Shown: positions 11,826 to 44,429 of the stretch, in pieces
Layout of the letters: each line of letters opens with the position of its first letter
How positions within the stretch are numbered: the stretch's first letter is position 1
Assembly (NCBI GenBank): GCA_047967505.1
Contig: CM106538.1
Reading direction: 5' to 3' (one strand)
Source of the DNA: Dipteris shenzhenensis
Lineage: Eukaryota
DNA length: 64,000 nucleotides
Made by a program: the position numbers and the translations under genes
The notes under the pieces: model-generated
What the model was told of the DNA's origin: nothing
The model's input: only the letters and a program-made list of their open reading frames with translations
Databases searched by the model: none

Positions 11826-13295
11826 ATGGCGCCTAGTTCAAAACCCCATGCCGTGGTGATCCCCCTCCCAGCTCAAGGGCACATTGCTCCCATGATGCAC
11901 CTATCCAAGAAGCTTGCGGCCGACGGCTTCACCATCACTTTTGTTCTTACAGAACACCACCATGCCATCTTGGTGCGCACGGAGCCTGTACTCAAGAGGG
12001 AAGGTCTTGACATTCGCTTGGTTGGACTCCCGGACGGGAGAGACTCCGGGAGTACCTCTGGTGAGGACGATGCTGTCGAGCTGTGCAAAGCTTTCTCAAA
12101 AATGGAGGGCGTCTTGGGAGGACTGATTTGCAGGCTCATGAAGGAGGATCCGCCGGTAACGTGTGTCGTCTCAGACATACTTGGCGAATGCACGCAAGAC
12201 GCCGCCAACAAGTTTGGACTGCCGAGGCTGGCTTTCTGGACCCAGTCAGCAGCAACGTATGCTTGTACTATGCTGGCCTTGCAAGGATTCCGAGCTTCGG
12301 AAGGTACGTCAATAACTAGGCATAACGTCAGACATTCTCCATCCGCAGGAAGAGTTTTAATTCAATCGTGGATTTCTGCAGAGCCTTTACCGATAACCGC
12401 CGTCCCAGGAACGCCACCCCTCAAGTTAACAGACGTGAATTCATTTGTCCGAATCTACGATCCCCAAGATTTCATGTGCAGCTTCTTCCTGCGTTCTTTT
12501 GCCAGGCTCGATGAGGCAGCTTGGATAGTTGTGAACACCTTCGACGAGGCTGAGCATGATACCCTGCAAGCTCTGAGAAAGCAGCACCAGATCTACACAG
12601 TTGGCCCTTTGTTGCCAATTTCCTTTTTCAATGGCCCGATGGATACCAAATACAAGACGGCGGTGCTCTGGCGAGAAGAATCAGACTCTATACTGTGGCT
12701 GGACAAGCAACCAACCGGCTCGGTTCTCTACGTCTCATTCGGCAGCGTCGCAGTACTATCGCGGGCACAATTCGAGGAGATGGCTTTGGGGCTGGAGGCA
12801 AGCCAGCAGCGGCTGCTGTGGGTGATTCGTTCGGACCTACTGCAGGGCGACTCTATTCCGGAGGGCTACTTGGAGAGGGTGAAGGATCGTGCGTTTTTCG
12901 CGTCGTGGGTGCCGCAGCTGCAAGTGCTATCGCATCCGGCAACGGGCGGGTTCCTAACGCACGCAGGTTGGAATTCGACGCTGGAGGGCATGGTAGCAGG
13001 GGTGCCGATGCTGGCATGGCCATATTTTGCAGACCAGGGAATGAACAGGAGGTTCATAGTGGATGGGTGGAAGGTAGGGATGGAGGTGGAAGGAAGCGAA
13101 GGCGAGCGGGGGGAGATAGTGAGGAGGGAGGAGGTGGAGAAGAAGGTGAGGGCGTTGATGGGAGGCCATGAATCCAAGGAGCTGCGCAGCAATGCTAAGA
13201 GGTGGAAGGCAGCAGCTCAAGCAGCTGCGCAGGAAGGAGGCTCTTCAGCTCGCAGCTTGGAGGCCTTGCTTAAGGCCATGCACCTTAGTGAGTGA
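11826..13295 (+). CDS. Plant family-1 UDP-glycosyltransferase (UGT85/86/83-like), probably with a 78-bp intron at 12304-12381
   Basis: N-terminal HAVVIPLPAQGH (catalytic His) and CVVSD (Asp). Complete PSPG box WVPQLQVLSHPATGGFLTHAGWNSTLEGMVAGVPMLAWPYFADQ, and C-terminal GGSS. Confidence 0.96.
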   Translation: MAPSSKPHAVVIPLPAQGHIAPMMHLSKKLAADGFTITFVLTEHHHAILVRTEPVLKREGLDIRLVGLPDGRDSGSTSGEDDAVELCKAFSKMEGVLGGLICRLMKEDPPVTCVVSDILGECTQDAANKFGLPRLAFWTQSAATYACTMLALQGFRASEGTSITRHNVRHSPSAGRVLIQSWISAEPLPITAVPGTPPLKLTDVNSFVRIYDPQDFMCSFFLRSFARLDEAAWIVVNTFDEAEHDTLQALRKQHQIYTVGPLLPISFFNGPMDTKYKTAVLWREESDSILWLDKQPTGSVLYVSFGSVAVLSRAQFEEMALGLEASQQRLLWVIRSDLLQGDSIPEGYLERVKDRAFFASWVPQLQVLSHPATGGFLTHAGWNSTLEGMVAGVPMLAWPYFADQGMNRRFIVDGWKVGMEVEGSEGERGEIVRREEVEKKVRALMGGHESKELRSNAKRWKAAAQAAAQEGGSSARSLEALLKAMHLSE

Positions 13296-21340: not shown

Positions 21341-21574
21341 TGCTTTTATAGCATGTGGGGTGTTTAAAGGATAAATTTTGTGATTAGTGGACTAATGTAA
21401 ATTTCATCATTTTGCAACAGTTGGAAGTCCCAAGGTTTAGAGAAGGTTGCAGGGTTTAGGAAGAGTCCAAGGCTGAGGAGTGGAGTGCTAGTCTCCTCCA
21501 CAACTTCAAGGGGTAAAGGGTTGAGAAGGAGGATCAAGGGAGGAAGGAGGAGGTAGCCTTCGAAAATCAATCCA

Positions 21575-23560
21575 AAACTTCCTTTTTATTATAGAATGGG
21601 ATGCTTATGACACTAAAGTCATGCCATTTGGGTTGCTTAATGCACCATCCACTTTTCAAAGGTTTATGGTTGAGAATTTCTCAGGTTATTTGACCAAGTT
21701 TATTGCCATCTGCCTAGATGATTTTTGTTTATACTAGGCAATATCCAGGCATTTGGCTTGTTTAGAGGTGACCAAGTGTAGATAGCCAGGAATCTCTTTA
21801 ATCCCTATTAAGTGTATTATCTATGCTTGGGGTGGAAATTTTGACATAGCTTAGATCCTTTGTTGGATTTATTAGCTTTTATTGAAGACTTGTGAAGGAT
21901 TTTGCCAAGATTGTAGCACCACTATATAAAACGACCAAGATACCAAGTTCTAGTGGACCAAGGAGTTGTCTATAGCATAAATTTGTGAATTGAAGTTCAA
22001 CGAGCAATTGAGACACCAATTCTCCAACCACCTTGGTGGTATCTTTCCTAACATGTGGATGCATCAAGCTATGCCATTGGCATTATTTTGTGGATCTTTC
22101 CTATCCATGGGGATGCATTAGGCTATGCCATCATCATTATTTTGGCATAGCTGGATGCTAGACTCGATTTATACATAGTCTATTTTGCTAGTCGGTTGAT
22201 GATGCCACTAGAGTGCGACTACAACACTACTTAGCATGAAGCTCTTTACCAAGAATTGCTACGCTTGACTAACAAAATAGTGATTCGGGGACGTACGGTA
22301 AGATGAATGTTGTTGCTAGAAGAATGTAATTTCAAAATGATGCACAAGCCAAGAAAGTCCCATGCAAGAGTATACTTCTTGTACTACCTACCTATCTGAG
22401 ATGAAAGCATGGACAATTGTTCACATTGGATTTTTTTGGGACCAGGTATGACGAAATGCTACAATACTATCACAAGGCCCATTTGCTAAGCAAATGTTGA
22501 GAGTGAAGCCAGATGGCTTTGAAATTTTGGAAGTATACTTTGATTATAGCCAATTATAATGCCAAGGTGCAAATGGCATCCTACACTGATGGGTCTTGCT
22601 ACATGAATGAGCAATAGTACTTGTCGAGCCACACATAGGGCCTACGGTAGGTCAATCCATGATGAGCTAATAACTTAAAAATTTTTACAAGAAGGGTATG
22701 GTGGAGTGCTCTATTAAAAAATGCACATGTTTCTTTGTAAAATGTGGTGTTTGTCAAAACAAATAGCCATATTTCTTCCATAGCATCATATGCTATTACA
22801 ACCAAGCTAGCCATGGGAAGCATTCTAGAGATGGGGCTTGGATGATATTGAGACATTTAAGAATGCATCTTAGTATACACAGAATAAGTACATTCTTGTT
22901 GCCAGATTATGTGACAAAGTGGGTAGAGGCTAAGGCACTACATGACAACTAGGCTTGTAAGCTAGCATGGCTACTACCCTCCGTGCAATGGCTGAGCTGA
23001 GTCCACTAATAAGACTCTTAATCCTATTCTCCCCAAGGGTACCCATCGCTGAGATTGGGACTCCAAGCTTTGTGCTGCACTTCGGCCATATTGGATAGCA
23101 TATAAGGTAACCACAAACATGACCATTCAAAATGGAATTTGGTTTAGAAGCAATGGTTTTTTTTGGAATTTCTCATCCCAATTCTTTGAGTCACACTGCA
23201 AGAATATCATCCTAGTGAACTCAAAGCGATCAAAAGACAATTGCACGAGCTCACTAGTCTAGATGAGTTGTGCATTCAAGCAACCTGGTCACAACAAGAA
23301 ATCCAAAGAAGAAGAAAGTCATGGCACGATAGACATATCATTTCAAATGGCACTATAGACATATCATTTCAAACTTGAAGAAAGGCATGCTCATTCTATT
23401 GTGTAACATCAAGCGAGGTCCTCTCAAGCCTAATCTTAAGCTTAGCCAGAATAAACCATATAGGCTCAATGAAGTGTTTGACAATGGTGGAGCGGTGCAA
23501 TTGGATTATTTGTTGGGACAATTTCTTCTCAAGGCCTTTAATGGTAGCCAAATAAATCCT
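21575..23560 (+). pseudogene. Heavily decayed Ty3/Gypsy pol (RT, RNase H, integrase)
   Basis: VMPFGLLNAPSTFQRFM...CLDDF (21618-21725), HVDASSYAIGIIL (~22052), YFASRL, DYVTKWVEAKAL (~22905) and C-terminal PYRL.EVFDNG. Many stops and indels. Confidence 0.8.
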
Positions 23561-24421: not shown

Positions 24422-25556
24422 TGAGGATTCCTAAGAGAGATTATTCCTAGCCTTATGCAAGCACAAGTGGAGCTTTGTCGTCGCTACTCTACACACACAT
24501 TCTGTGCTACCTAAGTCCATGTTGGCATGGAGACAACATCCATGAAGGAATTCAAATCTTAGAGCATATTACATTGACATCCTCTCATCCTCCTCTCTGT
24601 GCACATTACAATGGTCATGTCCATTTCTTGAAGAATATGAATGGAATTGCATTCGGTTCAATCAAACTATTCGATGTTTTGGGTACATTTCCTATATGTA
24701 TCTCTATTTGAAAGGTTAAAGTGAATGAATCTCTGTGTAAGTGCATATTTATTTCTTTCCATTTCTTTAATAAGGATAAGTCAAATTACATGGATGAGAT
24801 GGGAAGAAATATTCAAATGCTAGTATGCATGGCTCATTCATTAGGAGAAATTTTGAAAGGAAATAATCATATAAAGTGGTAAGTGTTGATACAAAACCTT
24901 TATACTCTTATAACCTTGCTCATCATTGTTCGATGAGTCTTCAATTCATTCAATGTTAAAGAGTGCCAAGCCTAGGCAAATTAGTGAGAGTGAGAATTTT
25001 GATGATACTGGAGGGTCGTCACCTGTACTAAAAAGGACTTTCACTTTTTTTGTTTATTCGATTTGATTGTGAGGACCACCTTGAGATGGAAAAATTTCCA
25101 ACACATGTAAAGGAATACATGAATGATCAACCAAGGTTGTACCAAATCCAAATCAAGGCACATGCCTAGACAAACAACAACCCCTGCTTAGCTGCACCAC
25201 ATCAAATCAAAGCACATGCCTGGTGGAAAAAACACCATGAGCAGAGAGAGATGGAAGAGAGGAACATGAGAGAAAAATAAAAAAATAAAACAAGTGGTGG
25301 TCATCGTAAGGGTAAGGATACATATATAGGAAGAGGACAAGACAAAGGTGTAATATATTTGCTATTTATTTGGTTGCCAGTTGTGGATTTTGAAAGCTAG
25401 CATAGAAGTTGTGAAATTTTGGAAGAAGTGGTGGTTGTTAAATTACATGGTGCAGCGGAACAGAAATTGAACAAAGAATAGAGAGTACACAGCAAACTGG
25501 AGAGGAAAAATATTTTCCTTCAATACTGATGTAGTACAAATGATGGCTCTATCCAC

Positions 25557-26540
25557 TGTTATGGATAAATTTGTCTAAGGAAAAAGGCATTAAAATGTGT
25601 GTCTGTTTGTATGTGTGGCAATAGTATAATTAAATATGGTGTGCATAGGGCCCAAGGTTGAGGTGGTAGGGCATGACCATGTGCCACCCTTCCACGTAAG
25701 AGGACCCATAAGGTGTGATCCATGGTAGTAATATTATAAAATGTAAGGTGGCATGGCTCCTCCATGTGCCACGCCTCCACCTAGGCTACATTTAGTGAGA
25801 TATGGCTCAAAGTCCATGGGAGAAGTAATATAAAATAGGTGGAGAGGGATATTATATTGGGTTATTCTCTCCATATAGGATAGGCCTATGTGGGGGAGGT
25901 ATAGATAGTCCAAGGATGCAAGTTAAATAATGGGGAAAGTAGGATGAGGTGGTAAGACTCCTTGTGCCAACCCTCCACTTGTCCTCCTAAATGTTGGAAC
26001 GTATTATAAAATTGGGAAGAGACCAAGGGAGTATCATAGACTTGAGATATGGGAGTTGATATATGTGGAAAAATGTGGCCAAGCATTATCGCACACAATT
26101 GAGAGTGCATATTCACCTAGCCCACATGGGAGACTCTTCCACACACACCATGCATGTGGGAGGATGCATTTATTAGGAGAGACCCTCTCTCTTGGCTATA
26201 AAAGGAGGGGGGTTAGCATCCCTTGATGGGACACGCTCATTCTTGTAAAGCCACCTAGCTAGTACTTTGATTTCTCCCGTCCCTTCCTTTCAAAATAAAG
26301 CATGGTCCTCTTCCCTTGATGTCTCCATCTTTACATTCCTCCTCCCATCATGTACATGCTTCTCTTCCCCCTCTCCCTTTCCCCTTGTGTCATAGTCTCC
26401 CTCTTCATTCCCTCCCCTTCTAATTCCTTTTCCCCTCCCATGATAACGTTTCGCCCTCACGTTCTCCTTTCCTCTATGGCCCTCGAGCGTCGCCATGCTT
26501 AGCCTCTAGCCTCTGGTCTTGATTTCTTTTCCAACTAATA
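25557..26540 (+). repeat. Gypsy 5' LTR
   Basis: Aligns with 46256-47228 with scattered substitutions and small indels. Confidence 0.93.
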
Positions 26541-26544
26541 GAAA

Positions 26545-26562
26545 TGGTGTGGCTGCTGGGAT
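26545..26562 (+). promoter_or_regulatory. Primer-binding site complementary to tRNA-His(GUG)
   Basis: TGGTGTGGCTGCTGGGAT is the reverse complement of the plant tRNA-His 3' end ATCCCAGCAGCCACA-CCA (tRNA sequence recalled, not searched). Confidence 0.85.
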
Positions 26563-27020
26563 CAAAATCTCCACGGCTAGTGGTATAAAATATGTTACTT
26601 CTATGATTGGGTGCGGCACTGTGGCCTCTTTCCTGCGCAGTTCTCTTCTTTTGTGGCTCCAAACTTTGTGCCTTCCCTGTCTCTACGGCAGCAAAACCAC
26701 CCTACTTCTACGCTTCCAGTCAGCCTGCTTTCTGCTTGCGGTTCCCACGTGTATTCTAGTTGGCGAATTTTTTTGCTTGTACCAATCGTAGCTGCAGAAC
26801 TGCAACATCTGTGCTCCCGCATGCGCATCCATTGTATACACCCACATGCATCACGGATATATCGTGACGTTTTTCTGGGCTCCTACGTCTTCTGGTGGCA
26901 GACTGCTGTTTTGAGTTTCTGCAAAACTGTGACAGATCCCGCGCCCCCCCTCTCTTCTCTTCTTCTTCTTCTGCTTCTCTTTCTCTTCTCCTTCTCCTCT
27001 CCTCTCCTCTCTTTTTATTA

Positions 27021-27085
27021 AGGAGTGGAATTTGAACCCAAGACCTCCCCCTTCACAAAAGGGAGACTTACCATTGGGCCAGCAG
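27021..27085 (-). other. tRNA-derived (SINE-head-like) sequence
   Basis: Minus strand has A box TGGCCCAATGG, an anticodon-like arm CCCTT-TTGTGAA-GGGGG and B box GGTTCAAATTC, followed by an A-rich tail. Stems are imperfect, so this is not a canonical tRNA. Confidence 0.5.
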
Positions 27086-27921
27086 ATAAGAAGTGATGAA
27101 AATATAATGATTCTTGCTTATATATTGAAATCTCGGAAACTATAACTCTCTAACCGTAGGGAGTTTTCACATGCTGTAAAAAGCAAAAGTACTTCACTTC
27201 ACGTGCTCTACTCATATCTCCTACTAGATTGCAAATTCTAAACTTTTTCAAGTTCACTTCATGGATGCACACCACACGAAGAGGGCGGATATTTATGTCA
27301 CTTCTCGATGAGTTCAAGGATTTGGTGCCTGGTCCTTCGTGCCTTATGGCTACCAATGGGCAAGATCTCTTTCTTGATCTTCATGTTGATCTGCAACAAC
27401 TGATTGTATAGTGCATTGCTCAAGGAGACAACAGGTGGGATGATACACCGTGGATGATTCAAGGTGAAGAACTACTAATACGCTGGGAGAACTTTGATTT
27501 CAATTCTACTCGCTGATCGAGCTACTTGCTGCTTTGGAGGTAATTAAAAGGGTGTCCTTCTTTGAAAGGTGGGATGCTCTCCAAGCTTGGGGGGAGATTT
27601 GGCGCATCTGCTTATTAATTCTTGTGGATAAGCTCGTCTTGAATGGTTTATTCTCAATCTCACTACAATGGTTTCTAGGCCTTGGCTATGGTTGGTAATG
27701 TTTCAACCAAGGAATCCATTTGTACCTAATCAACCCTTTGTGCCTCATTTTGAGCTTCAAGTTGTAATTCTTTTTGGTCTAAAGATAAAGTATCAAGAAA
27801 GGATTGCCAGTTTATTTGGTGCTGAACGTTTGGCTCAAGTATTGAATTCTCCCCATCCTCTCCTTCTACCTATCTTGGACTATCGAGAAACTTGGGATGT
27901 CTGGATTTTAGTCTTGGTGTG

Positions 27922-28386
27922 ATGACATCTTGGATCCTTCAATTTGATAGAGCTTACAAACCTTCGACCAAGGCTGCTGGCATGGGTGTGAAGCTCACTT
28001 CACCAAGTGGTGAGAATTATTGTTATAGCAAGTCTACACCTGCAAGTACATGCAACCAAGCTGAGTACTCGGCACTCATTTTTGGGCTACAAAAGGCATA
28101 AGGGCATCGCATCAAGCAACTTGAGGTGCAAGGAGATTCTCAACTAGTGTGTGAACAAGTTAGTGGAAGGTGGAAGGTGCGGAGCAAAGGCTTGGTTCCA
28201 CAACATCAACAAGCATTGGAACTGTGCCAACAATTTGAAGAGGCAAAAATTCAGCATATAACTCGAGCTCAAAATATAGTTGCTGATTTCTTGGCACGTG
28301 AAGCTTGTACTTCAATCACGCATGATGCGAGTGGAAGCACCACCCCAACAAAGCTGCAAGCCACGAAGGAGGGTGATCATTTGTAA
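27922..28386 (+). pseudogene. Archaeal-type RNase HI (aRH) domain with one premature stop, followed by a frameshifted CCHC knuckle
   Basis: Reads WILQFD..A...GMG, TCNQAEYSALIFGL, VQGDSQLVCEQVSGRWKV, HITRAQNIVADFLA. TAA at 28099 is in frame. CKECKGCGHHETKC follows at ~28382. Confidence 0.88.
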
Positions 28387-28891
28387 GGAATGCAAAGGTT
28401 GTGGTCATCATGAAACTAAGTGTTGGGCATACTTGATACGAGTTTACCGAATTCGGAAGATCATCAGAAAGGTCCTAAAGGACATTGCTCAAAAGAAGGA
28501 TGCCAGACCACACACCCCTTGAAGAAATAGCATTGCGACTACAAGAACTAGAAGAAGCTGAAGGTGATGTGCAAGCTCTCCAACTATTGACATTTGTCAT
28601 GGCATTCTTGTTTGCCTTGATGAAAAACCTCATGCAGTGCCACGTCTCTAACCCTCGCTTGTAAAGATGGCTACGATATCATGAGGGTTGGTCCTTTTAA
28701 GATTGTCTATGAGCTATTCTATGCTGAAAATTCTTCCCGTGTAGTATTTCACAATACACCAGTCACACCCTACCCTGCCTATGTGTGCTTTGTGGATGTA
28801 TCTTCACCTGATTTTCAGTTCAAGCTACCTCTTTCCATTGTTTGCCCATAGATAAGGCTCATTTCGTCTCTCTCTTTTCCATTTTCCAAGC

Positions 28892-30430
28892 ATGGCTGAC
28901 ATTCTCATGTTTTGTGGATGGGTTGAAGAAAATCCAAATGAGTATCTTATGGCCTTCAAGTGCCATTGTGTTTCTCTCAACTTTCTTGCTAAAGATAGAT
29001 GGCTGTTGGTTCTTCCCACATTTCTAGAGGGTTTGGCTCAAGTGTGGTATGAGAAGCAGGCCGAAGACGTTCGCCAAAGCTTGCCAAGGTTGACAACAGT
29101 GATGATTGAATATTTCGACAAAGAAGAGGAGCCAAAGAATGTGTACCTGCAAGTGGCAAACTTGAAGCAGTCAAAAGGTGAGATGGCACGTTGATATGTG
29201 GATCGAGCAGTCGTGCTCTTGGACCATTCAATTGCCACACAGGAGGGAAATGCCGGATTTCGAGCTGGAATGACTCAACATATGCTGGCTACCTTGTAGC
29301 AGGAGCAAGTGACGAATTTTGCCTCAAGCTTAAATGGGAGAATCTAGAAACTATGGTGCTAGCATATGAGATTGCTCAAAAGTTTGATAAAGTTCAGTCT
29401 GATCCCACTTCAAAGAAGGCGATTGTGCCTCTGCAACCCCTTCAATTCTTGCAACAATAACCTGGGTGGTCTAACTTAGGGGCATACCCCCACCCCTCAT
29501 CAGGGATGTATCCACCACCTCCACCTCAAATGTATGGTCCTCCCTTAGATGCTTACCCTCAACAAGGTGTATATTCTCACCCTCCGCCTCAAAGATTTCC
29601 CCAGCCTCACCCACATGCCCCCCTCCTTTCTACTCCCTCGGCCCTCCAGCTAAAGAGGCCCCTCTTTCAAAAGAACCCGGAGTCAATGACCTAGCCAAGG
29701 CCCTGAATGATCTTTGGCTTGAGATGGTGGGCATCAGAAATCAAGCCAACTACCCTCCAAGAGACCGAGCTAATGTTGTATGCTACGAGTGCCACCAGAA
29801 AGGTCATTATCACATGGAATGTCCCAATATTCCAAGGGTGAATTTTCTAAGTGATTCTGGCACTGAGGATTCTGATGTAGAGATCCTTGACCTCGGGAAA
29901 AGAAGTCATACCACCTTGGACCCCTCTCGAAACCATGGACTAGGCTACCCCAGGAAGAAGGTGTCCTTCTCAGAGCCCTCAAATGCTGAGATGGCAGACC
30001 CACCAATAGAGAAGACTAAAAGATCTCACAAGAGTAAGTGGTTGCCCTCAAATTTTCCCATCGGCTCGAGGCAAGAAGACTATTCGATCGTTCAGGACCT
30101 TGCTCATCGTTCTTTGAGCATCACGCTCCCTCAACTAATAGCATTAAGCCCTAAGGTGAGACGGGAGCTGCAGCAAGGGCTCTCAACAAGGAGGAACAAG
30201 AAAAAGGGAAAGGTAAGAGAGGTATCTTCTATCTTTGAAGAAATCAATCGACTTCCACATACAATCGATGTCATCATAGATAATTGCCGTGTCAAAAATG
30301 TTTGTGTTGATGGGGGAGTTGCATGTAATATCATGGTGCCCTGAATCATGAAGAAATTGAATTTGAAATGTACAAGGCGTTCCTCCACTCGAATCAAGGT
30401 AGCAGATGGTCGACGACTCGCCACCTTGGG

Positions 30431-30436
<6 letters not shown>
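28892..30436 (+). pseudogene. Gypsy gag + aspartic protease (disrupted)
   Basis: Gag-like FLEGLAQVWY and LKQSKGE, a Pro-rich linker, knuckle CYECHQKGHYHMEC, and protease VDGGVACNIM / IKVADGRR. Cut off by (CT)n at 30436. Confidence 0.85.
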
Positions 30437-30469
<33 letters not shown>

Positions 30470-30519
30470 CCTCCCTCCCTCCCTCTCCATCTCTCCCTCA
30501 ATCTCTCTCTCTCCCTCAA

Positions 30520-30559
<40 letters not shown>

Positions 30560-30566
30560 CTCTCGC

Positions 30567-30634
<68 letters not shown>

Positions 30635-30687
30635 TTTTTCTTTCTCCTTATTTGTCTCTATCTCTCTCTCTCCCCTCTCACTATTTA

Positions 30688-30749
<62 letters not shown>

Positions 30750-30955
30750 CTCTCCCTCTCTCCCTAACTCTCTCTCCTTCTCTCCCTCTCTCCCTAACTC
30801 TCTCTGTCCCTTTCTCCCTAACTCTCTCTCTCCTTCTCTCCCTCTCTCCCTAACTCTCTCTCTCCCTCTCTCCCTAACTCTCTTTCTCCTTCTCTCCCTC
30901 TCTCCCTAACTCTCTCTCTCTCATTCTCTCCCTAACTCTCTCTCTCCTCTCCCTC
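30436..30955. repeat. (CT)n microsatellite grading into CTCCCTAACT units
   Basis: Visible directly; begins exactly where the Gypsy protease reading frame stops. Confidence 0.95.
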
Positions 30956-32319
30956 GGCTAACGCCCATCAATGATATCATCAACCGGGCTACGTGCATGC
31001 TCTCAAGGCGAGGCGTAGCGAATCCGGGGAGCACGGAAAAAAAGAGGTTGGGGAGGAGAATCGAAGGGTGAATCAGCGGGGGAGCTAGGGGAAGAAGAAG
31101 ATGGCGGGGAAGAAGAAGATGGTGGGGAAGAAGAAGATGGCGAGGAAGAAGCTCCCTTCAGTCCAAAAAAATTTAAACAAATGCATGAGGAGATGGAGAG
31201 CTTACCTGGCAAAGCTGGAGAGCTGAGAGGGGTAGACTCGTAGAGGGAGAGATGGAGAGGTTAGAGGAACTAACAAGAAGGGATTGGGGTAGAATATAGA
31301 GTAATTTATTTTTAGAAATATTTCTTGCTATTTTTAGTAAATAGGAATGACTAGCAATCAAAGCAATGTGTTTTCAAAAAATCAAACACAAAGTACTTTA
31401 AATCATATTCAAGCACACCACCCCCATTTTCAAAATACGGTAAATTATAGTGAAACATGTCGTAAAATTTGATTTCATGACCGAATTAAAAATAAAAAAC
31501 ACTTAACCATAAGAAAATTACACATACCTGGTGATTCTTTGAACTCTTGGGCGTATTTGGAAATAATGAGAAACAAATGTGGGAATCTCATGTTTATAGA
31601 GAAAATTTTCTATTTTTAGAAATTTCTTTATGCTCAAAACCCTAAACCTAACCTTGACTTTCATTGGTCAGGCATATAATTTCCACCTTTCATTGTTGCA
31701 TGGCACTTTTGGGGCATCCCCTTTGAAGCTTTCCAAAGTTCTGCATGGGAGGTTCATTCGACACTACGTCTATCTCAATTTCTTCTCATAGTTCCAAGAG
31801 CGCTTCCTTTGCTACATTGGATGTATCTTATACTAGTGGTGGAAACTCTTTTGCCACCTTGGATGTGTCTCCTACTCCTTCACCTAAGCATGATGGTGGA
31901 CATAGAAGCCCAGGCACTCAAATCCATGGACCTAATATTCCCATTGAAGAGAATGAAATAATAGATGTTGAACCAAGCACAAGAGGTCAACAAGTGTTAT
32001 TAGGTATGTGGTCCATGTCTAAGTTCATTCAATGGCTCTATTTGTTTTGTTTTTGGAGCTAGAAATGATTTCTTACAAGGGACATCTAATCTAGATGGAT
32101 CTCAATGACTATCTTGGCTATCACAAAAGGGGAAGCGGAATTCAATCTCGTCTATTGAGGAGAGACTAAAGGGAAGAACAATGAATGTGGACCTCAAAAA
32201 GTCTAGCTACACAAGAGGGAGAGCTTGTAGAATGCTAGACACCACACATCTGAAAGAGACCTGCAATACTCTTTGTTTAGTGTAATGTGCCTCTGGTAAC
32301 TTTTGAGGTTGCAAAATGA

Positions 32320-34420
32320 AGGGTGTTACAGAAAAATTATGTTGAAATGAATAAAGATGATCAAAATTTTTATTTAGCATGGTCTGTAAGACCTAGGGAA
32401 AACAATATGAACAAAATAGTGTTTGAGTACTCATTCGGTTCAAGGATTGTTTGTCACAAAGCATATAGACTTACACATTGTCTTGGCAACAAAAGGCTAA
32501 AAAGATTACAGGCCCACCTCTATAAAGACCCCCACATTTGTACAATAGTACAAATGAGAGTGCTTGGACCACATGGCAACATGGTATGCTCGTGGTTGCA
32601 AGACTTTGTGTAAAAACATGCTCAGGCTCTTCCAAATAGTGACTAGTTGCACTTATCGGATAATTTCTCCAAGCTGAGATCCATTCCATGTACAAGGATG
32701 CCATGGTTATTGCAGGTGACAAGTACGTGACATACCAGCATTTTTGTAGGATTTGGAAGAATGAATTCAACAACGTGAAGATACCAAAGCTTTGTCGCTT
32801 TGGTGTGTGTGCCACATGCGTGGACTTTAAGGCCTTGCATAATAGAAGTCAAGGACAAGAGAGAGGTGTGTGTAATGATGCCGTGAAAACTTGCTTCGTT
32901 TTGACAAAAATTGTTTTCTTGCAACATCTAATTGTTTTCTATATCTGCAGAAGAAGCAATCACAAAGTTGCATATGCATCGAGAAATGCAAGCTCTAGAA
33001 AGGAAGAAGTTAGCGAAGCATTGCAAGAAGAGCTACCAATGGCTTGATAAGTACATAACCATCATCATTGATGGGATGGATCAAAAGAAGACCAATCTTC
33101 CACACTTCAAACGAGTACCCAAGGATTTGAAAGAGGAGAACTTCATCACATATCATGTAGTTGGATGCATGATCTACCATGGTGAATAAATCCCCAAGGT
33201 TTATCTAATGACACCAAATGTAAGAAATGATCCTAATCTCACAGTTTCCGTTCTTAATGATGCATTGAGGAATCTTACACAACCTCTTCCAAAAGTGTTG
33301 TATGTCCAACTTGATAACACATCGAGAGAGAAAAAGAATCAAGTTGTGTTGGCATATCTTTGTATGCTTGTGGAGAAAGGCATATTTCTAAAAGTGAAAT
33401 TAGGATTCATGATGGTGGGTCACATACATGACCATATTGATCAGATGTTTAGGCAGTTCTTAGTAAAGCTAAGAAGGAAAGAAGCATGGGATGGGGATGC
33501 AATGATCCGCATTTTACAGGATGCATATGTGCCAAAATCGATAATTGCAAACATGGAAAAAACAATAGATTTCAAATGCTTTGTGTTTGGTGACAACGAG
33601 TGAATTGATTGATGTATTGAGAAGCTCAACGAGTTAAGCTTTCAACACCAATTTTGAATTAAGAAAGATTAAGAAGGCACGACGTTGTTGTGGGGGAAGT
33701 TCTATTCCACATCACCGACTTGGGTTCCAGTCAAAGGATTGAAGTTCTTGAAGTGTGTTCCAGAGCATGAGTTGTATGTGGCACCCTTACAACCCTTACA
33801 ATTAGTGAGGGAGCTGCAATGAGCCATGAAGGAGGAGAGAGATATAAACCCTATAAGTTCAGTCAATGAGATTAGAGAAACAATCCAGCATGCTGCAACG
33901 CATTTTGAAGATGTGGTGTGGACATGGTGGAATCCATTCTTTGCATCCCAAATACTTATCAATCACCTACTAAATGACCCCAAGATGTGTCAGATTTTAG
34001 TTGGCCACAATGCATTGAACAAGATTTTGTAAATGTGCATATGAATGCTTCTTCAAGTGCGCATTTACATGCAGCTTCTAAGAAGAACTATCTTGGGGAG
34101 GAGAGAGAAATATACCTTGGAGCATGAAAGTCCAAAAAGGCTAAGGAAAGGGTTCAAGAAATGTGGAGTGGTAGCATCGAGGTGGGTATGATGGTTGCTG
34201 TGTTAGCAACAAATGATCCTAGTGGATTTCCTTTTTGGATTGCTAAAGTTGTGAAAGTCAGAAAGGAAGGTTCAAACACCAAGTCAATAGAGGTGCATTG
34301 GTTTTTCACCAAGTCCATGGATGCTGTCACGAGTCGATATAACCCAAAGATGGTGGTAACAAGGAAGCGTGGCCAAAAAGGGAAGAGGGCGACAAAGAAT
34401 TATCCAAGAATTTCTTACAG
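32320..34420 (+). pseudogene. Sola-like DDD transposase remnant with introns
   Basis: Reads CRFGVCATC...LHMH, IIIDGMDQKKT.LPHF, LYVQLDNTSREKKN and FMMVGHIHDHIDQMF, with C-terminal PFWIAKV. GT-AG intron at 32866-32950; several stops. Confidence 0.65.
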
Positions 34421-35456
34421 ATACTATGCATACCTCCAAGAACAACTAACCCACGAACAAAAAAAACTTGCTGACTCAGAAATTGCAAAAGAGAGGTCAC
34501 AAGAGACAATCACAAGATTAATAGATGAGAAGAATAATGAAAAAGGCTTGGTATATCCAACAAGAGCTTGCTACATTGACTAGGAGATTAGAAAAGATAA
34601 AAGGAACCCCTCTAGGTTACAAGCATAGGATCAAGCCCTTGCAACCAATGGAGAGCTTTGCATATGGTGGTGGAGCAAGGAAGCGCAAGGTGAAAGCTAC
34701 AAGGTATATATCTTTGGTTACTTACAAATGAGTCATTTATTTTTCTAATGTTATCATGATTTCTACATAAATTTCATGAGGTTATTGGAAGAAATTCCTC
34801 TGACAAACTTCGTGCCGTAAAGAGTGTAGTTAAGAAGAAAGAATTCATTTCTATTCTTAGGGACCCTCGTCGATGTGCATTGTGACATGCAATATCACAA
34901 GAGGTTGCAACTGATTTAGAGAATCTTGTAGATCCATCGGAAGTTGTCCATGCATGTGATGCTACTGGCATTAGTTGACAAGGGTACTTAGCTGTGTATA
35001 ATGTCTTTGTAAATGCACTTCGAGGTCAAGGCATTAAGAATCCTCTATTGCTGAGACCAATATACATTAGAAATGCAAGGAAAGAATCTCAGAAAGCATG
35101 ACATTGGAAGGTGACAAAATATGAAGAGGGGAGAGGAGAAGAGTGGAGATGAGGAGAGAGGGCACAGCTAGAGAGCACACCACAAATGACTAACTGTACA
35201 CTAGAATTAGTTAAAAAAATAGAATATATACAAACCCTTTTAGGGTTAGGGTTAGGGGATCTAACCCTTTCCTTTATAGCACTCTATAAGGTTAGTGCTA
35301 TGCACATATGATCACGTGATGGTGCTATGCACACATGATCACATGATGTTGAGCGTGAACTCTCAACACCTTCCCTCAAGATCAACATCATGAAGTAGGC
35401 CTTCCCTCAAGATGATGATTCTGGGGAATAGAAGAAGGACTGAGCATTACATTCCA

Positions 35457-38400
35457 TCACACCCCTTTAATGGGAATGTCCTTCCTCTGCATCAAACCAA
35501 GAGCTAGTCGGTGTTTCTCGAATAGCTCTTTACCGAGTGGTTTGGTAAAGATGTCTGCAACATTTTCTTTGCTATCACAATGCTGCAGTGTGATGTCACC
35601 AAGTAACACTCTTTCTCTGATGAAGTGCTCTCTGACATCAATGTGCTTTGTTCTGGAGTGATATACTGGATTTTTGGCCAATGCTTGAGCCGATTGATTA
35701 TCACAGTATATTGTTGTTGGCTTTGACTCATCAAAGTAATCTGTTTCTGACAATAGTCTTCTGAGCCATATAGCCTCACATGCACCTGTAGTGAGTGCCC
35801 TATATTCTGCTTCAGTCGAAGACAAAGAAACAGTTGGTTGTTTGTTTGACAACCATGATATAGCACCTTGACCAAGGAAAAATGCATATCCCTGTGTCGA
35901 TCTCCTGGTCTCATGATCTCCAGCATAGTCACTATCACAGTATCCATGCAACCGTGGATGACTTCCTCTGTATTCTATCCCAAACTGTCTTGTACCTCTG
36001 ATGTATCTCAAGACTCTTTTGGCTGCATTCGAGTGAGACTGTTTTGGATTTGCCATAAACTGTGCTAGTGAGCTTACTGCATAACAAATATCTGGCTGTG
36101 TGATTGTCAGATATATAAGAGATCCAATGAGTTGCCTGTAGTATCTGTCATTGACTGAAGGCTTTTCTGAATCTTTAGTAAGTTTCAAACTCTGTTCCAT
36201 GGGAGTGGCTGCAATCTTGCAATCTGCCATATGAAACTTCTTCAGGAGACTGTCAACATACTTGAGCTGACTCATGAATGTGCTATCTGAATCTCTCCAG
36301 AACTCAATTCCAAGACAATAGTGCATAAGTCCAAGATCTTTCATGTCGAACTCTGCAGATAAGTCTTGTTTTAATTTTCTGATGAAGCTATCCTTGCTTC
36401 CTGTCACAATCAGATCATCTACGTACAAAAGTGCAATAGTAATATCTTCCCCTTGAACTTTGTAGTAGAGTGTATGATCTGCATTGGACTTCATGTATCC
36501 CAGATTAGCAAAATACTTGTCAATTCTGCTGTACCAACTTTTGGGTGCTTGCTTTAAGCCATAGAGACTTTTCTTGAGATGGCAAACCTTGTTCTCCTTT
36601 CCTGGTTCAACATAACCAGCGGGTTGTTGCATGTAGACTTCCTCGTCTAGATAACCATTGAGAAAGGCATTCTTGACATCGAGCTGATACACATTCCATT
36701 TGCTGAGTGTCGCTAGTGATATCAAGAACCGTATGGAATCCATCTTTGCTACTGGAGCATAAGTCTCATCATAATCTTGGCCATATTGTTGTGCAAATCC
36801 TTTTGCAACTAATCTGGCTTTGTATCTCTGAATACTGCCATCTGGATTGTACTTCACTTTGTATACCCATTTGTTGGCTATGGCCTTCTTTCTTGGTGGA
36901 AGGTCGCATAATTCCCAAGTGTTATTTTTATACAAAGCATCCATTTCTTCATTCATAGCAGTTTGCCATTCTGGCTTGTCTACTACGTCTTCGAAGTACA
37001 CTGGCTCTTCTGTAGCCATGATGGTAGTCATAAGAGCATAGTTGGTGGTTTCCACCTGAATTGCTTTGCCTTTCTGAGCATATGTCAATCTGGCTGGTGG
37101 TCTGCTTTCCCTAGTAGACCGTCTGAGCTGCTGTGGCGCTGCTTGGGGTGTTGCTGGCAATTCTTGCTCTTCTTCATCAACCTGTTCTATGGATGACTGT
37201 GAAGTTGATGCTTCTATCTCCTGTGTAGGTGAGGTTTTCCATTCTGATTCCTCATCAAAAATTACATCTCTGGAGATAATGACTTTGCGGTTGATGGGAT
37301 CATACAATTTGTATGCTTTGCTTTCTTCACTGTAGCCAACCATGATGCATTTGCTTGACTTCGCATCCAATTTCCTACAATGATCATCATGTATGTGGGC
37401 ATATGCTATGCAACCAAATATGCGGAGATGCCCAATGCGTGGCTTGTGTCCAGTGAATGCTTCATAAGGAGTCATTCCTTGTATCGGTTCGGTAGGAAGC
37501 CGATTAAGCAAATAGTTAGCTGTAGCTATTGCTTCTGCCCAATACTGATTCGGAAGATGCTTTTCACTAAGCATTGCTCTAGCACTGTCTGCTAAAGTCC
37601 CATTCTTCCTTTCAGCTCGTGCATTCTGCTGAGGAGTATCTGCACATGTGAATTGTCTTCGAATGCCGTGATTTTTGCAAAAGTTCATGAATGCTGAAGA
37701 CATGTATTCACCTCCTCTGTCTGATCTCATGACCTTGATCTTTCTGCCTGTCTGGTTTTCTACCATGGCTTTGAATTCTTGAAATCTGGCAAACACTTCA
37801 GATTTCTCTTTTAGAAAGTAGACCCAACAATATCTGCTATAGTCGTCGATGAAGGTCAAGTAATAAAGTGAACCATTGATGCTGCGGGTCTGGGCATAAC
37901 CCCATACATCTGTATGAATCAAATCAAGAATACCTCGTGCACGAGAGGTACTTCTGACAAAGTTGGTTCGCTTTTGTTTGTCGAAGTAGCATGCTTCACA
38001 AACCTTTCCAAGAAACTATAGCTTCGGAATCCCAATTGCCATATTCTGATTCCTGAGATCTAACAAGTACTTGAAGTTGACATGACCATATCTCTTGTGC
38101 CATTTTGCAGATAGTGGCACATCATTGTCTGTGATGTGCTCTTTCTTTGTTAATGTATTTATTGGTGCATTGTATAGAGTAAGTTGAAATTGGTTTGGCA
38201 TGCTTTATGTAGTGTAGTATTATGATTTCAAACATAAAAGAAGGGCTTGGTGGTTCGGGAAGTGGTTCCTGCGCTCACAAGGCGGGACCTCACACAAAGA
38301 CACAAAGACACAAGAGAGACCAAAAGAGATAGAAAATCCTCTTTGTATTACAAACGGGTGCTTTGTTCCAAACTAGTTTCGCTTGATATTCTCAAGCTTA

Positions 38401-40127
38401 TCAGTGGAACACCCAAAATGTGAGAATGCAAATGAGAGAAGCTCACAGGGGGCTAAGAGGCACCACAACCTAGGACCAAGTTTCTTAGATCTAGTTGACA
38501 AGCTGAAGAAATGTATGCTTATTTATTTTGTTGCATTTGAGCTGACATGGCATGCTTATCTGGTACTGTAGCTAGCATCATGTATAAGCGTCCTTCCTTG
38601 ACACCTTTTGCTACTAGCTGACCTCTTTTGGATTTGTCTCTGATAGTGCATTCATCACCATCAAAGATGACTTTGTAGTTGTGTTCAGTCATTTGACCTA
38701 CTGACAAAAGGTTCTTGCTGAGCTTCGGAACATAGAGCACATCTTTGACTAATCCTTTTGTACCAGTGAAATTGTTCATAGGGATAACACCTGTCCCTTG
38801 AACCGGATTCGGTGTATTGTCTGCTGTGTAGATGACATTCTTTTGACCTTCTAATGGCTTCATTTCTGTGAACCATTCCTGATGATTTGTCATATGAGAT
38901 GATGCACCGTTGTCGATGTACCAAGGATCCTGTTCCACTTGGTCGACTTGATAACTGAAATCCTCTGGGATTGAAATTAGTGTCTAGGTGCATTGTATCA
39001 GTCTGATGCAATTCCTCACTTGCAAGAAACATATTTCCATGTTCATTTGCAAAATGACTGTGACTAGAATGTCCACCACGATGATTTCCTCTTCCTCGGG
39101 AATTCCCTCGATTACTGCTGGATTGACCGCCTTGGTCATACTGTTTCTTGCGGAAATCTCTTTCATAGTGTCCAAACTTGTGACAATAGTTGCATTGAAT
39201 GTTTGACACATTGGTGGATGCATTCCCTCTTCCTTGAAATCTTCCTCGATTGGAATGATTTCCTCTTTGTTGATTCTGATGTTGCTGAGGATGATGCTGA
39301 TGTTGATGCTGATTCTGACTTTGATTTTGTTGATGATGACCACTTTTCTGATATGATCTACCTCTGTTTCTGCCTTTGCCTCTGCTTCTGTCTGAAGCTG
39401 TGAATGCCTGATCATTAGAATGACCTTTACGTGCTTGAATGGCCTGAGTCCTGAGTTCTTCACCAAGTAGAACTGACTGAAGTTCTTCCAGTGTTGGAAT
39501 TTGCCGTTGGATGGCAATACTCTGGACTAGATTCTCATATCCTTCTCCTAGTCCATTCAGGATTACTTGAACCATTTCTGCAGGATTCATAGTCTCTCCT
39601 GCTGCTGCAAGTTGATTGTTGTAGTCTTTGATGCGGAGTACATAAGCATGACTGGTTTCACTGCTATTGCAGAAACTCTGGTTGATCTGGTTTCTCAGGG
39701 TGAGAATCCTGGATGTGTTCTTGGACTCGTAGAGAGCTGCGAACATATCCCATGCTTCTTTTGATGTCTTGACTGTGTTGAGCTGTCCTAGCATGACATC
39801 TTGCACATTCTACTTGATCAGGTGATAGGCATACTTGTCTTTCTTATCCCATTCTGCTTGAGCTCGGGCAATGGCAGGATCTGCTACTGGTGTGGAAACT
39901 GTTTGTGTAGATGTAGATCCCGATGTAGATCCCGTTGCTGGTGCTGTGACAACAGATGGAGTAGAGCTACTGGTGGTTGGATCGGCCAATGGTCTAGGTA
40001 TAGATCCGTCGACATACTCCCATTTGTCCTGAAGCACAAGAATGGTCTCCATTCGGTATTTCCATGTACCGTAATTGGAGTTGTCTAACTTAGCAGATGC
40101 CTCCAGATTGAGGTTGCTAGTCGACAT
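35457..40127 (-). pseudogene. Copia gag-pol (integrase-RT-RNase H open over 821 aa; gag/PR disrupted)
   Basis: ATG at 40127 (MSTSNLNL). Stops at 39810 and 38016, frameshift at ~38940, ~400-bp insert at 38135-38535. Motifs WYIDNGASSHM, WHKRYGH, HTDVWG, RSDRGGEY, YVDD, ADIFTK. Confidence 0.93.
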
Positions 40128-40899
40128 GGTGCAAACAATGTACTCAAAAGTGTCCTGAAAAAACTCTATATGAATCAACTGCAAATACACTGAAGATGCC
40201 AAGTGAAATCTCTGTACCATCGGTGAAGATAGAACTGTAGTATATAAGATCTGATCTGTATTACAAGGCTTGTGGCAATGATGCCGGGAATAGCCAAGAG
40301 GCTTTACAAGGCTGAAAATGATGTGCACGATGCCGTGAGATAGCCGAATAGGCTTTACAATGGTGGCATGTGTGTGTGAAATCAAGTGCTATCTGCCCAC
40401 TGAATCAATCTGCAATGCCTCTGAACTCTGAAGTCTGCTCACTGAACTGATGAACGTAAGGTTTCAAGTAATGTAATGATGTGAAATCGGATGTGTGGTA
40501 TGGACTGACTCCGAGTAGGTACTAGTCGGGAATTTCGGGCATGGCTTAGATTGGCAACTTGGGGAATTCAAAGCGTCCCCTCTATGGCGATCTAGTCTAC
40601 TCTGATCTAGATCTAAACCAACCGTCGATCGATGAAAGAGCAGCAAATAATTCCTTTTCTTTTGTTCTTTTTAAGTGCTGGGTCAGATGTGTCGATGTAG
40701 AGGCAAATGTGCGTGAAGGAAGTGGTTTTGACGGCGAGGCTCAAATGTGAGTGTAACTTGTGCCAAAATGTGCATGTGATGTAACGAGCGCATAGAGCAC
40801 AAAAAATCGAGCGACTTTCCTTTTTGGAGCACCCTCAAATTCTTCCTGGATCAAGAGATACGACTTGATCTAGGTGGAGGAGCAAAAGGAGTGCAAATG

Positions 40900-41345
40900 G
40901 TGCTCAATGATGATGTGTCACTGTGAGTCACATGTTGGGATGATGTGGCACTGTGCTTAACAAGAGGTGTGCCAGTGAAGCTCTGTGCTGAGGTGGCAGG
41001 AGTGTGCACATGCAGTGTGTGCACGGTGTGCCTGGCAAGGGACTGTGCCTGCAGAGGGTCAGTGCTGACTGGACTGCTGAGGTGGCAGTGCTGAGGTGGC
41101 ACTGATGACGTGGCCTGATGATGTGGCCTGGTGACATGGCACTGATGACGTGGTAGGTGATGTGGCCTGGTGGCGTGGCAGTCGATGATGACATGGCAGT
41201 CGATGATGACGTGTCTGCTGACGTGGCAGTCGGTTGCCACGTGTCAGATTTATGAGGCGCTTATCTGCCACGTGGCAGATAAGATGACGTGGCGAACTGA
41301 TGACATGGCAATTGTGGCTAAGGCTATCTGCCACGTGTCGCTAGG
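40900..41345. repeat. Short tandem repeats rich in (T/C)GACGTGGC/CACGTG in the Copia leader
   Basis: Repeated TGATGACGTGGC and GATGACATGGCA. Perfect 24-bp palindrome at 41260-41283. Confidence 0.85.
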
Positions 41346-44300
41346 TTGCTTCACAGAATCTTTTTGAAGATTCTAACGGAATCTAGGGAGATTTCGTCGA
41401 GTCGATCGTGAGAGCCTTAAGCTCTACGTTCGCGTTGGCGTTCTCTGAGAAGTCGTCTGAGAAGTCGATGGAGATGGAAGCTACAGGAGGCGCTGTTCGA
41501 AGTCGGCTGAGGCGATCGCAGACGGCTTCCTCCTCCATAGCCAGCGCTTAGCCATCATCGCACAACGATCCAGAGCTCCTTCGCTCTGTTTCGGGTGGCC
41601 GTCGATGGCTCCTAGGAGGCGTCGTTGGTCAGAGCGCGGGTGTGGAAGCTATAGGTAGAGCGAGGTCGTCGTTGAAACTGAGCCTTTGCTGGTCGTCATG
41701 CGGGTCGCGTAGTTCAAGTGGCGGCGTTGGAGTGCTCGTTTATGGTCGTTAGAGCCTCCTTGACGTTTGGAGTCGTTGAAGGCGAGTCGTTAAAGGCGAG
41801 GAGCTAGGGTGTTGGAGGAGTAGGAGTCGATGCAGAGCGGCTGTCGTTGGAGGCCACCTTGGCCTTGTTGGAGAAGGACGTCGCCATCTCGCTGGCAGCC
41901 AAAGGAAGAGAGTCACTTTGAACTCTAGGCTCATGCGATTCGTTGTTGAAGATGGAGCGTCGCTTCGTTGGCCACACCAAAGATGTCCTCAGCGTTGCTC
42001 GTTGTCTCGCTTTCCTTTTGAACTGGAGTTGGTTGGTAAAGGCAACCTTGAAAGTTGGCTATGCTCAACACAAGGCTTGGCTATGGCGGAAGGTGAGCTC
42101 TGCAACTATAGATCATAGCCTTGTTGATGAAGCTTCTACTCAGGAGTCTTATCAGCAACAACAGAACACCTCGCACACACAACAACAGACTTCGCAAGCT
42201 CCTGGCTGTGAGCTTGGGCATTTCGTGGAAGGTCAAGGGCTAGCCATTGGTATGTCATTTGATATCTCATTGTTGCATACAAGAGCTGAGATCTTTTCTC
42301 TCTCAAAACAAGCTCTGTCTCTCTCAAAGAAGTCTAGGCTCTCAATGAACGGAAGTCTCTCTCTCTCTCTCAACTCAAGAAACACCAAATAAACTCTCTC
42401 AAATGACGAAAATCTCCTTTCGATGGACGGAATTTTCTCTCAACGGAAGAGAATGGAACACTCAATCTCTCTCGATCTCTCAATCTCTCAATCACTCTCA
42501 CAAGAAGGATGGTACCTCAACGGAAGGCAGAATCATGCTCTGATACCATGACAAAATATGAAGAGGGGAGAGGAGAAGAGTGGAGATGAGGAGAGAGGGC
42601 ACAGCTAGAGAGCACACCACAAATGACTAACTGTACACTAGAATTAGTTGAAAAAATAGAATATATACAAACCCTTTTAGGGTTAGGGTTAGGGGATCTA
42701 ACCCTTTCCTTTATAGCACTCTATAAGGTTAGTGCTATGCACATATGATCACGTGATGGTGCTATGCACACATGATCACATGATGTTGAGCGTGAACTCT
42801 CAACAAAAGGCACAAACAAGACAAATGTCCAACATAGCAAAAAGAAAGGAGGACCAACTACCAAAGGGGCAAAGCAAGGACCAAGAACTTTTGAGTACAC
42901 AGAGCCTAATAATGTTTTTTTGGATGTACTTAGGGTCCAAGCTACAATGGTGGAGTTTTACAACATGAAAGCATGGGGTAGGGTAAAATTATATTGTTTA
43001 GAGACCTGGAATTTTTATTGAAATCTTTTCTAATCATGTAAATCTTTTAATCTATCAAATTGTGAAGGAAAGTTAGTATTCATTATCTAATTGGATCAGT
43101 GTGAGGTTGTAAGAGGCCACAAGTTGGAGAGGGTTAGTATTACTTTGATGCAGAAAGTCCTTGGACATGCCAAACATAAGGAAATTAGGGAAGATTTTAG
43201 TGTGCAATCGAAAAAGCACATTTGGTGGCTTGCCACATTTGAACTTCCTAAAGAGAGACACCATTCTTGAAATGGGTATTTGATAGATCTCCAATTCCAA
43301 GTGTCATAGATGTGCAAACGAAAGGAGAGTTGCTTCAAGTTGAAGGGTTTGGATCATTTCAAGTTGAATGGCACGTGGCTGGAGATCTTAAGACATTGAA
43401 ATTATGTTTGGAATAGAATTGAGTGCAAATGCGACATATCCATGTATTTATTGTATGCACTCACACCAACCTCGAGGCAGTAGCATAGGAATACATAGAG
43501 GGAAAGAGCAAATAAAAAGAGGAAAAGACTTTGGGAATGCTAAAGATGTAATGAATGACATCACAGATGATGAGGCTAACAAACGAATGTATTGGAGCAA
43601 TGGAGAAATGAGCTACAGTCAAAATGCTGCACTCAACAGAGATCAGAACGATAAAAATTGGGATCCAATTTTAAACATTCCATTACAAAGAGTGCATTTC
43701 TATGGTTACATGCAGAGATGCAGCTCATTTGATAAATTGCTTTACTTGCACATTGTATATGCATGGAACATGAAACCGGAGGAGAGAGTGGCATCATGTA
43801 TAGCAAGGGTCAAAGCTTTACTCTCAAGCATGGGTCTACATGGGGGGAATGTAAAGCTAATCAAAGACGCACAATTGTCAGGAAAATCAGAAAATCTTCC
43901 AAATAAAGTGTCTGTGGGAGGCTCTAAGGATGAAGGTTTTTGTCCAATCATGGAAAACATCGATTAAATATGCATTAGAATTATTGGAAAAAGTTATGTG
44001 ATTGCACCACTAATTTGGAAGCTGATCCTCATGTCAGAACCTTGAGAATACATGTTTGGAAAGAATTGGATAATTTGGTAAAGATCTTGAGGAAGCCGAT
44101 GATGATGTGCAACTACATAAAGTCATCGTGAAAGAGTTCATTGAAGCCATGGTAGATGGATGGGGTGAATCACACATTACTCACTACATGGTATGTTTGG
44201 TCTTTGCTATTTTCAAAATTATAATTGCAATCAATTTATTCTTGTTTAACTCATGTGTTTTTTCTATGTATGCAACACATTCTTTATGCTCATGGTCCAT

Positions 44301-44429
44301 GGTTTCTTCACCAATATGTTCCTCGAATGCTTGGAGTGCCCAAGGGATGGAAAAGTCTCATTATAGAGCTCGAGGTGCTTATTTCAAGAGTACACGACAT
44401 GGAGGGGGGATTAATGGAAGTAATGCTAA

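Follow-up and report, generated by a model that had tools for sequence, protein, structure and literature searches.

A probable stand-alone archaeal-type RNase H gene between the 5’ LTR and gag of a Tat-like Ty3/gypsy retrotransposon

The window, a 64-kb stretch of plant nuclear DNA (41.8% G+C, no N), contains a 21.7-kb Ty3/gypsy element in which an archaeal-type RNase H (aRH) lies between the 5’ LTR and gag. In all likelihood it represents a stand-alone aRH gene carried by a Ty3/gypsy element of the Tat lineage with a published layout (LTR, leader, aRH ORF, gag(-PR), pol, LTR), present here in an old, dead copy.

Placement of the aRH before gag was described as “structure #4” by Biryukov & Ustyantsev in 2023 (PMC10508981). 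The same layout was named “pre-capsid” by Prokopeva et al. in 2026, who name the 2023 paper and Wang et al. 2021 as its discoverers (PMC13468544). The first-pass annotation of this DNA had raised the possibility of an undescribed architecture; that suggestion falls, because the layout is already in print and is not to be counted as new. It has been reported from four mosses (Tat B) and from Selaginella tamariscina (Tat C) (PMC10508981, PMC13468544), and from ferns only structure #1 has been reported (PMC10508981). The native RNase H (RH) is degraded in all aRH-bearing Tat structures, and the 2023 authors ask how an aRH located outside pol could function (PMC10508981). The annotation’s premise that the aRH of Tat, Ogre and Retand elements usually resides within or after pol is sound as background: in the portion of the REXdb study available (Neumann 2019), three aRH positions are given, all within the polyprotein (PMC6317226). 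The portion of Ustyantsev et al. 2015 available places the aRH likewise, and describes additional ORFs, with PMD or Tr28 domains, in front of gag (PMC4408406).

Results

Structure of the host element

The LTRs were paired by BLAST (25555-26540 versus 46254-47228, 94.2% over 986 nt, direct orientation), and their TG starts lie at 25557 and 46256. CCAC(T) is found on both outer flanks of the element and represents a target-site duplication. No second copy of the element was found within the 64-kb window. The parts of the element are as follows.

25557-26540, + strand: 5’ LTR (BLAST pair, TG start; sibling LTR contigs in four of four runs)
26541-27921, + strand: long 5’ leader before the aRH, 1.38 kb
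26545-26563, + strand: putative PBS, beginning TGG 4 nt past the LTR, as read from the sequence
27922-28386, + strand: solo aRH ORF (archaeal-type RNase H), 154 codons plus stop; a pseudogene in this copy
28280-28522, + strand: stop-to-stop frame with a CCHC zinc knuckle and a basic tail, in frame +1 relative to the aRH
28892-30434, + strand: gag capsid-like part, NC knuckle, then aspartic-protease-like part, from pairwise comparison
30914-35111, + strand: unassigned DNA at the expected place of the RT core, with a DUF7869 pseudogene; the element’s own RT is missing, and the stretch from 42806 to about 44250, beyond the nested Copia, belongs to the same gap
35112-42805, - strand: nested Ty1/copia element, 7.7 kb, with 257-nt LTRs 99.6% alike; young
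44496-44837, + strand: native gypsy-type RNase H (RT_RNaseH, E 7e-13), catalytically degenerate
45111-45623, + strand: integrase, H2C2 zinc finger plus core (Integrase_H2C2 and rve)
46256-47228, + strand: 3’ LTR, with a polypurine tract (46245-46254) just upstream

The coding parts are ordered gag-like, PR-like, RH and INT, with RT absent in this copy. No Pfam domain was found in the leader (26541-27921), and a search of 25000-31000 against Rfam gave no match. The gag region starts at approximately 28892 and, in the window copy, carries in-frame stops and a frame change. Its capsid-like part shares 19% identity with the Ty3_capsid/Retrotrans_gag part of P0207 (E 2e-6, pairwise), and the protease-like part, at approximately 30260-30434, shares 38% identity with P0196 (E 1e-21). 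Three-frame translations of 26541-35111 and 42806-46252 gave no Pfam gag or PR match for this element, and three-frame X-translations of the same two segments contained no RT core (RVT_1). A CT-rich simple repeat with long Ser/Leu/Pro frames (30434-30913) interrupts the protease region. This tract and another at 2141-2950 are of low complexity, with 8-12-nt periodicity.

The DUF7869 pseudogene (33121-33693, E 2.7e-43) is transposase-like, and DDE-transposase-like motifs were seen by eye in its frame. Its Atlas neighbors are eukaryote-wide DUF7869 clusters (arthropods, oomycetes, diatoms), and the stretch is possibly a DNA transposon inserted before the Copia. The nested Copia carries gag, Pol_BBD, rve, SH3 and RVT_2 domains on the minus strand and includes an open 852-aa integrase-RT frame (35460-38015); the approximately 2.1 kb that separate its gag from the LTR upstream are unaccounted for. 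At the far end of the gypsy element, the purine run GGGGGGGGAA lies directly ahead of the 3’ LTR, and a sibling shows the same purine tract, in an X5 contig whose loose end lies where the LTR begins. With a stop in the aRH ORF, stops and a frame change in gag, and the RT core missing, the window element is an old, dead copy.

An archaeal-type RNase H ORF in the 5’ leader

The aRH ORF extends from an ATG at 27922 to a stop codon at 28384-28386 and is interrupted in the window copy by one in-frame TAA (28099-28101). Translation of 27904-28383 with X at the in-frame stop gave a product that matches Pfam RVT_3 (PF13456) with an E-value of 2.4e-25 and 89.3 bits (curated cut-off 21.6). The match covers profile positions 2-123 of 123, corresponding to 27943-28305 in the window, and RNase_H (PF00075) is also matched, at E 1.2e-6. 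The motifs QFD, AEY, GDS and VAD, named in the first-pass annotation, are all present in the translation, and their catalytic D-E-D-D aligns with that of intact siblings and of solved archaeal or bacterial RNase H chains. All four catalytic residues are thus retained despite the stop. The first motif reads FDR in the window copy, as compared to FDG in every one of the 14 intact siblings. When P0002, an intact sibling, was used as query, the closest PDB chain was Halobacterium RNase H1 (4e19, E 1.6e-17), and further matches were obtained to 3hst from M. tuberculosis and 2ehg from Sulfolobus. The aRH shares its sequence family and D-E-D-D core with these archaeal-type RNases HI (4e19; 2ehg of Sulfolobus tokodaii; 3hst, the N-domain of M. 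tuberculosis Rv2228c). However, those proteins are cellular enzymes, whereas the aRH of the window is a retrotransposon gene.

This aRH is the sole RVT_3 match among 145 ORFs of at least 60 aa (both strands, 24000-49000) and the sole one in six three-frame translations of the element. Judged by sequence, 27922-28386 is predicted to encode an archaeal-type RNase H within the 5’ leader region of a Tat-like Ty3/gypsy element. An aRH with the D-E-D-D residues approximately 500 bp before gag had been proposed from the first reading of this DNA, and both parts of that description hold, with 505 nt separating the aRH stop from gag. The leader contains 23 ATG triplets ahead of the aRH start, and these upstream ATGs leave translation of the aRH, and subsequently of gag, without an explanation.

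The aRH ORF in sibling copies

A near-length database search with the window aRH as query gave 11 matches among 15 candidates. Nine of the 11 are siblings of the element (73-81% identity), all from short contigs. P0002 and P0003 are intact 154-aa sibling ORFs belonging to clusters of 8 and 25 members, and the two clusters yield 14 distinct intact 154-aa ORFs that start and end as the window ORF does. These 14 are mutually 89-99% identical, and the window copy is 77-82% identical to them. The D-E-D-D residues are invariant in all 14. Among the siblings 30 of 154 columns vary, comprising 23 of the 133 in positions 1-133 (the domain) and 7 of the 21 in the tail. The sibling protein P0010 joins leader and aRH in a single frame, and the portion of P0010 that lies in the leader matches the translation of the window leader.

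The context of the ORF was followed in Logan contigs of four public runs, aligned to 25400-30400 at a likeness of at least 80%. The number of sibling contigs placed was 337, 336, 306 and 62 per run, with 29-30 of 30 bins covered in each, and every part of 25555-30400 is covered in four of four runs. The order of leader, aRH and gag start is the same in the sibling contigs. One contig of 1027 nt aligns to 27782-28808 with 56 differences and no gap, and another of 1667 nt starts in the leader (joint 27209->27848), crosses the aRH and reaches 28827. The end of the LTR is bridged to the leader by X2 record 9 and X4 record 15, and the leader to the aRH by X2 record 11; a 157-nt contig (28779-28935) reaches into gag. 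The link from aRH to gag is pieced together from short contigs of different copies that overlap one another, with no single listed contig spanning it. At 28855, in a CT-rich stretch, six X4 contigs continue in a manner unlike the window.

Some single contigs contain parts skipped by the aligner (27900->28499, 28595->29231 and others), for which deletion and a likeness below 80% are alike possible. In one instance an X2 contig joins 27900 to 28499, very nearly the limits of the aRH-plus-knuckle block, with the content between not known; this contig could be an aRH-less sibling or merely a stretch less than 80% alike. Another sibling contig is without 27397-30164. In X2 and X4, the aRH region has a summed contig depth 2-4 times as great as the gag region, and although depth is not copy number, the aRH block may also occur in other contexts.

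Scans of DNA for siblings with P0002 gave 2 pattern matches in viral contigs and 85 in JGI metagenome contigs, of which none was confirmed in either set, and no run among 14, with no RNA run listed among them, contained more than 0.13 of the sampled words. When longer proteins were searched with P0002, 41 matches were obtained among 783 candidates, with none above 44% identity, and no aRH-gag fusion model was found in the database by this search.

The first-pass annotation had proposed that sibling elements be used to check whether the aRH position is conserved. The position is upheld by 14 siblings with the same ORF limits and by its context in contigs of four runs. Because siblings share the ORF limits, the leader and the downstream sequence, the 5’ aRH is not a one-off insertion and appears to be a family-wide gene.

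Lineage of the element

Since the RT, whose phylogeny defines the lineage, is missing in the window copy, the integrase was used as a proxy for lineage placement. An exhaustive HMMER search returned close relatives of the integrase as fragments only (P0180, P0183 and P0298, 65-71% identity). Longer relatives are 26-46% identical in the HMMER listing, and the highest identity to any tree row is 45%. An aRH is borne by 24 of the best 150 integrase matches, and by 7 of the 34 of those scanned with Pfam. In a FastTree phylogeny of 143 integrase cores, the window falls within a clade of 63 rows (97% local support) that holds 24 of 24 aRH-bearing rows; the other 80 rows include none. The end branch of the window integrase is long (0.83).

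The native RH was aligned with those of six intact relatives without an aRH and three aRH-bearing (Tat-type) relatives. All four catalytic positions are kept in the six, whereas three of the four are lost in the aRH-bearing relatives. In the window, three of four catalytic positions are not acidic, and the sibling P0298 shows the loss at both positions covered. The integrase clade, the degenerate native RH and the aRH together indicate that the element is Tat-like. The earlier assignment of the aRH’s host element to Gypsy was correct. With an integrase at most 45% identical to any longer tree row, the aRH family would be a rather divergent one.

A zinc knuckle adjoining the aRH ORF

A zinc knuckle, CKECKGCGHHETKC (CX2CX4HX4C), is found at 28382-28423. 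It starts on the final sense codon and the stop codon of the aRH ORF, the latter of which it overlaps. Six-frame translation of the 64-kb window contains two CX2CX4HX4C motifs, this one and the NC knuckle of gag (29781-29822), as compared to a mean of 0.03 expected from mononucleotide shuffles (n=100). The knuckle adjoining the aRH ORF is statistically not a chance occurrence. A CCHC knuckle following the aRH had been noticed at the outset; the motif is real, but it is not in the reading frame of the aRH, lying instead in the +1 frame. The 80-aa knuckle frame gave nothing against Pfam at E<=0.1 beyond one chance-level match.

The words zinc, CCHC, knuckle and frameshift have 0 occurrences in the main text of the 2023 paper (PMC10508981). 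A full-text literature search for an additional RNase H with a zinc knuckle gave no aRH-knuckle link, and the match listed concerns LINE-1. The knuckle adjoining the aRH ORF may be new, being unmentioned in the main texts on this layout in the portions available.

The host and other features of the window

Outside the element, the window contains the following features.

4509-5546, - strand: Copia RT fragment
5542-11702: a 1784/1798-nt unit repeated in tandem, four copies 98-100% alike, between the Copia RT fragment and the UGT gene
11826-13292, + strand: UGT85-like glycosyltransferase gene, intact, single-exon, 489 aa
15422-15715 (+), 21525-21734 (+) and 51605-52075 (-): transposon debris, a Helitron_like_N fragment and two RVT_1 fragments
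58353-60958, + strand: multi-exon trichome-birefringence-like gene, with PMR5N plus PC-Esterase pieces in several frames

The UGT85-like protein was compared to its relatives. Among the 120 matches listed, the closest show 54, 52 and 48% identity. Named ferns among these matches show 46 and 45% (Psilotum nudum), 43% (Adiantum) and 42% (Pteridium), gymnosperms approximately 41% and angiosperms at most 40%; no bryophyte is among the 120 listed. In a tree of 51 rows, drawn from a multi-copy family and with no lycophyte row, the protein falls in a clade (SH-aLRT 89) whose named members are ferns only, outside the seed-plant clade (95). This placement suggests, as a lead and not a result, that the host is a fern-like, seed-free vascular plant; such a host may be new for the layout.

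Discussion

Relationship to known Tat elements

In agreement with structure #4, a separate aRH ORF lies between the 5’ LTR and gag and is the sole RVT_3 of the element, the PR-RT position being missing in this copy. The aRH ORF before gag, the degenerate native RH and the integrase in last position are common to the window element and to structure #4/pre-capsid Tat, and the window integrase groups with aRH-bearing elements. Two differences are apparent. In the window element, the aRH ORF is adjoined by a CCHC knuckle in the +1 frame. The neighboring host gene groups with ferns and not with mosses or seed plants, whereas the reported hosts of structure #4 are mosses and Selaginella.

Tat elements with a pol-internal aRH carry it between PR and RT (TatI/II), after INT (TatIII) or between RH and INT (Ogre/Retand), according to the portion of the REXdb study available (PMC6317226). 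Their aRH belongs to the same family at 35-44% identity, and the degenerate native RH, the large size and the long non-coding leader are also shared. However, the window element has no aRH between the native RH and INT or after INT, and has a separate 154-aa ORF instead. The 5’ eORFs of Ogre/Retand-type Tat elements likewise represent an extra ORF between the 5’ LTR and gag of a large element. These encode PMD or Tr28 domains of unknown role (PMC4408406, in the portion available), whereas the window ORF encodes a member of a catalytic RNase H family.

Origin of the 5’ aRH

The element is full of other insertions, and the aRH block could have been one more of them, a one-off nested fragment that landed by chance in the leader, either as the 3’ end of a plant L1 LINE or as a captured host RNase H gene. 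Plant L1 ORF2 can end in an aRH, and plant L1 elements with aRH domains and zinc knuckles were reportedly described by Smyshlyaev et al. 2013. Such an origin is hard to reconcile with siblings in which the ORF has identical limits and is preceded by the same leader and followed by the same sequence. No LINE RT or other LINE domain adjoins the aRH, there is no A or T run of at least 7 in 27500-29000, and the flanking direct repeats are short and at chance level only; on these three grounds the L1 3’ fragment reading is largely refuted. Among the 41 longer aRH relatives, moreover, none has an endonuclease or zf-RVT domain, whereas 26 have gypsy RH, RT or integrase domains. A nested fragment of either kind is accordingly regarded as highly improbable. 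A different question is whether the family’s 5’ aRH was gained by a separate capture from a non-retrotransposon source and not by moving a Tat aRH through recombination, which we consider unlikely. In a tree of 59 aRH domains, its rows being those returned by the searches, the window and its siblings are held together with 99% support. This family groups (SH-aLRT 90) with aRHs fused to SAP, helicase and ribonucleotide-reductase domains and with solo metagenomic RNase HI, while the aRHs of its integrase-nearest relatives form a distinct 98% clade; one contig may also lack exactly the aRH-knuckle block (27901-28498). Each of these observations would fit a separate capture. On the other side, the backbone supports are 78-81, the domain is approximately 130 aa and the branch of the sibling clade is long (0.72), and the degenerate native RH is consistent with a Tat ancestor that already bore an aRH. 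The 2023 survey likewise calls the aRH phylogeny one without resolution and prefers a single acquisition (PMC10508981). The present tree neither shows nor excludes separate capture, matching the published lack of resolution.

The aRH ORF could also be a functionless passenger, intact in siblings only through recent amplification. The siblings are 89-99% identical, leaving little time for decay, and the question raised in 2023 of how an aRH outside pol could work (PMC10508981) is in keeping with such a view. However, an LTR element depends on RNase H activity, and in the native RH three of the four catalytic residues have been lost. The sibling D-E-D-D is invariant (14/14), positions 1-133 vary in 17% of columns as compared to 33% in the tail, and the window copy, at 77-82% identity to the siblings, yet keeps the catalytic residues and the ORF limits. 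These features make a passenger improbable, and the reading preferred here is that of a stand-alone aRH gene belonging to a Tat-like family.

Possible function and significance

In working copies of the element, the 154-aa protein would most likely be the only active RNase H. The native RH beside the RT, its catalytic residues lost, probably acts as a tether, the role suggested for it across Tat elements. Because the native RH is without catalytic residues and the aRH is encoded outside pol, the aRH would need to work in trans on the RNA/DNA hybrid while reverse transcription proceeds. On this model the protein would be synthesized, be taken into the particle and break down the template RNA. 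Given the identification of the ORF, the chances appear about even that RNase H activity is provided in trans by the 154-aa protein, the polymerase’s own RNase H being only a spacer.

A bolder proposal, and a long shot in our estimation, combines a pre-capsid Tat family in a fern-like host, where surveys give only the retrovirus-like layout, with a knuckle that is either fused to the aRH in some translation events, through a Ty-like +1 frameshift, or produced separately as a small RNA-binding protein partnering the aRH. If true, the knuckle would give a trans-acting RNase H a handle on genomic RNA and would carry the RNase H into the particle. This would answer the question of the 2023 survey of how an aRH outside pol replaces a dead native RNase H.

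The remaining value of the finding is a further, rather divergent family with a rare layout. Its host appears to lie outside the mosses and Selaginella where that layout was reported. The family, which combines a native RNase H that is dead with many intact aRH ORFs and a neighboring zinc knuckle, could offer a test case for the role of an RNase H outside pol in reverse transcription.
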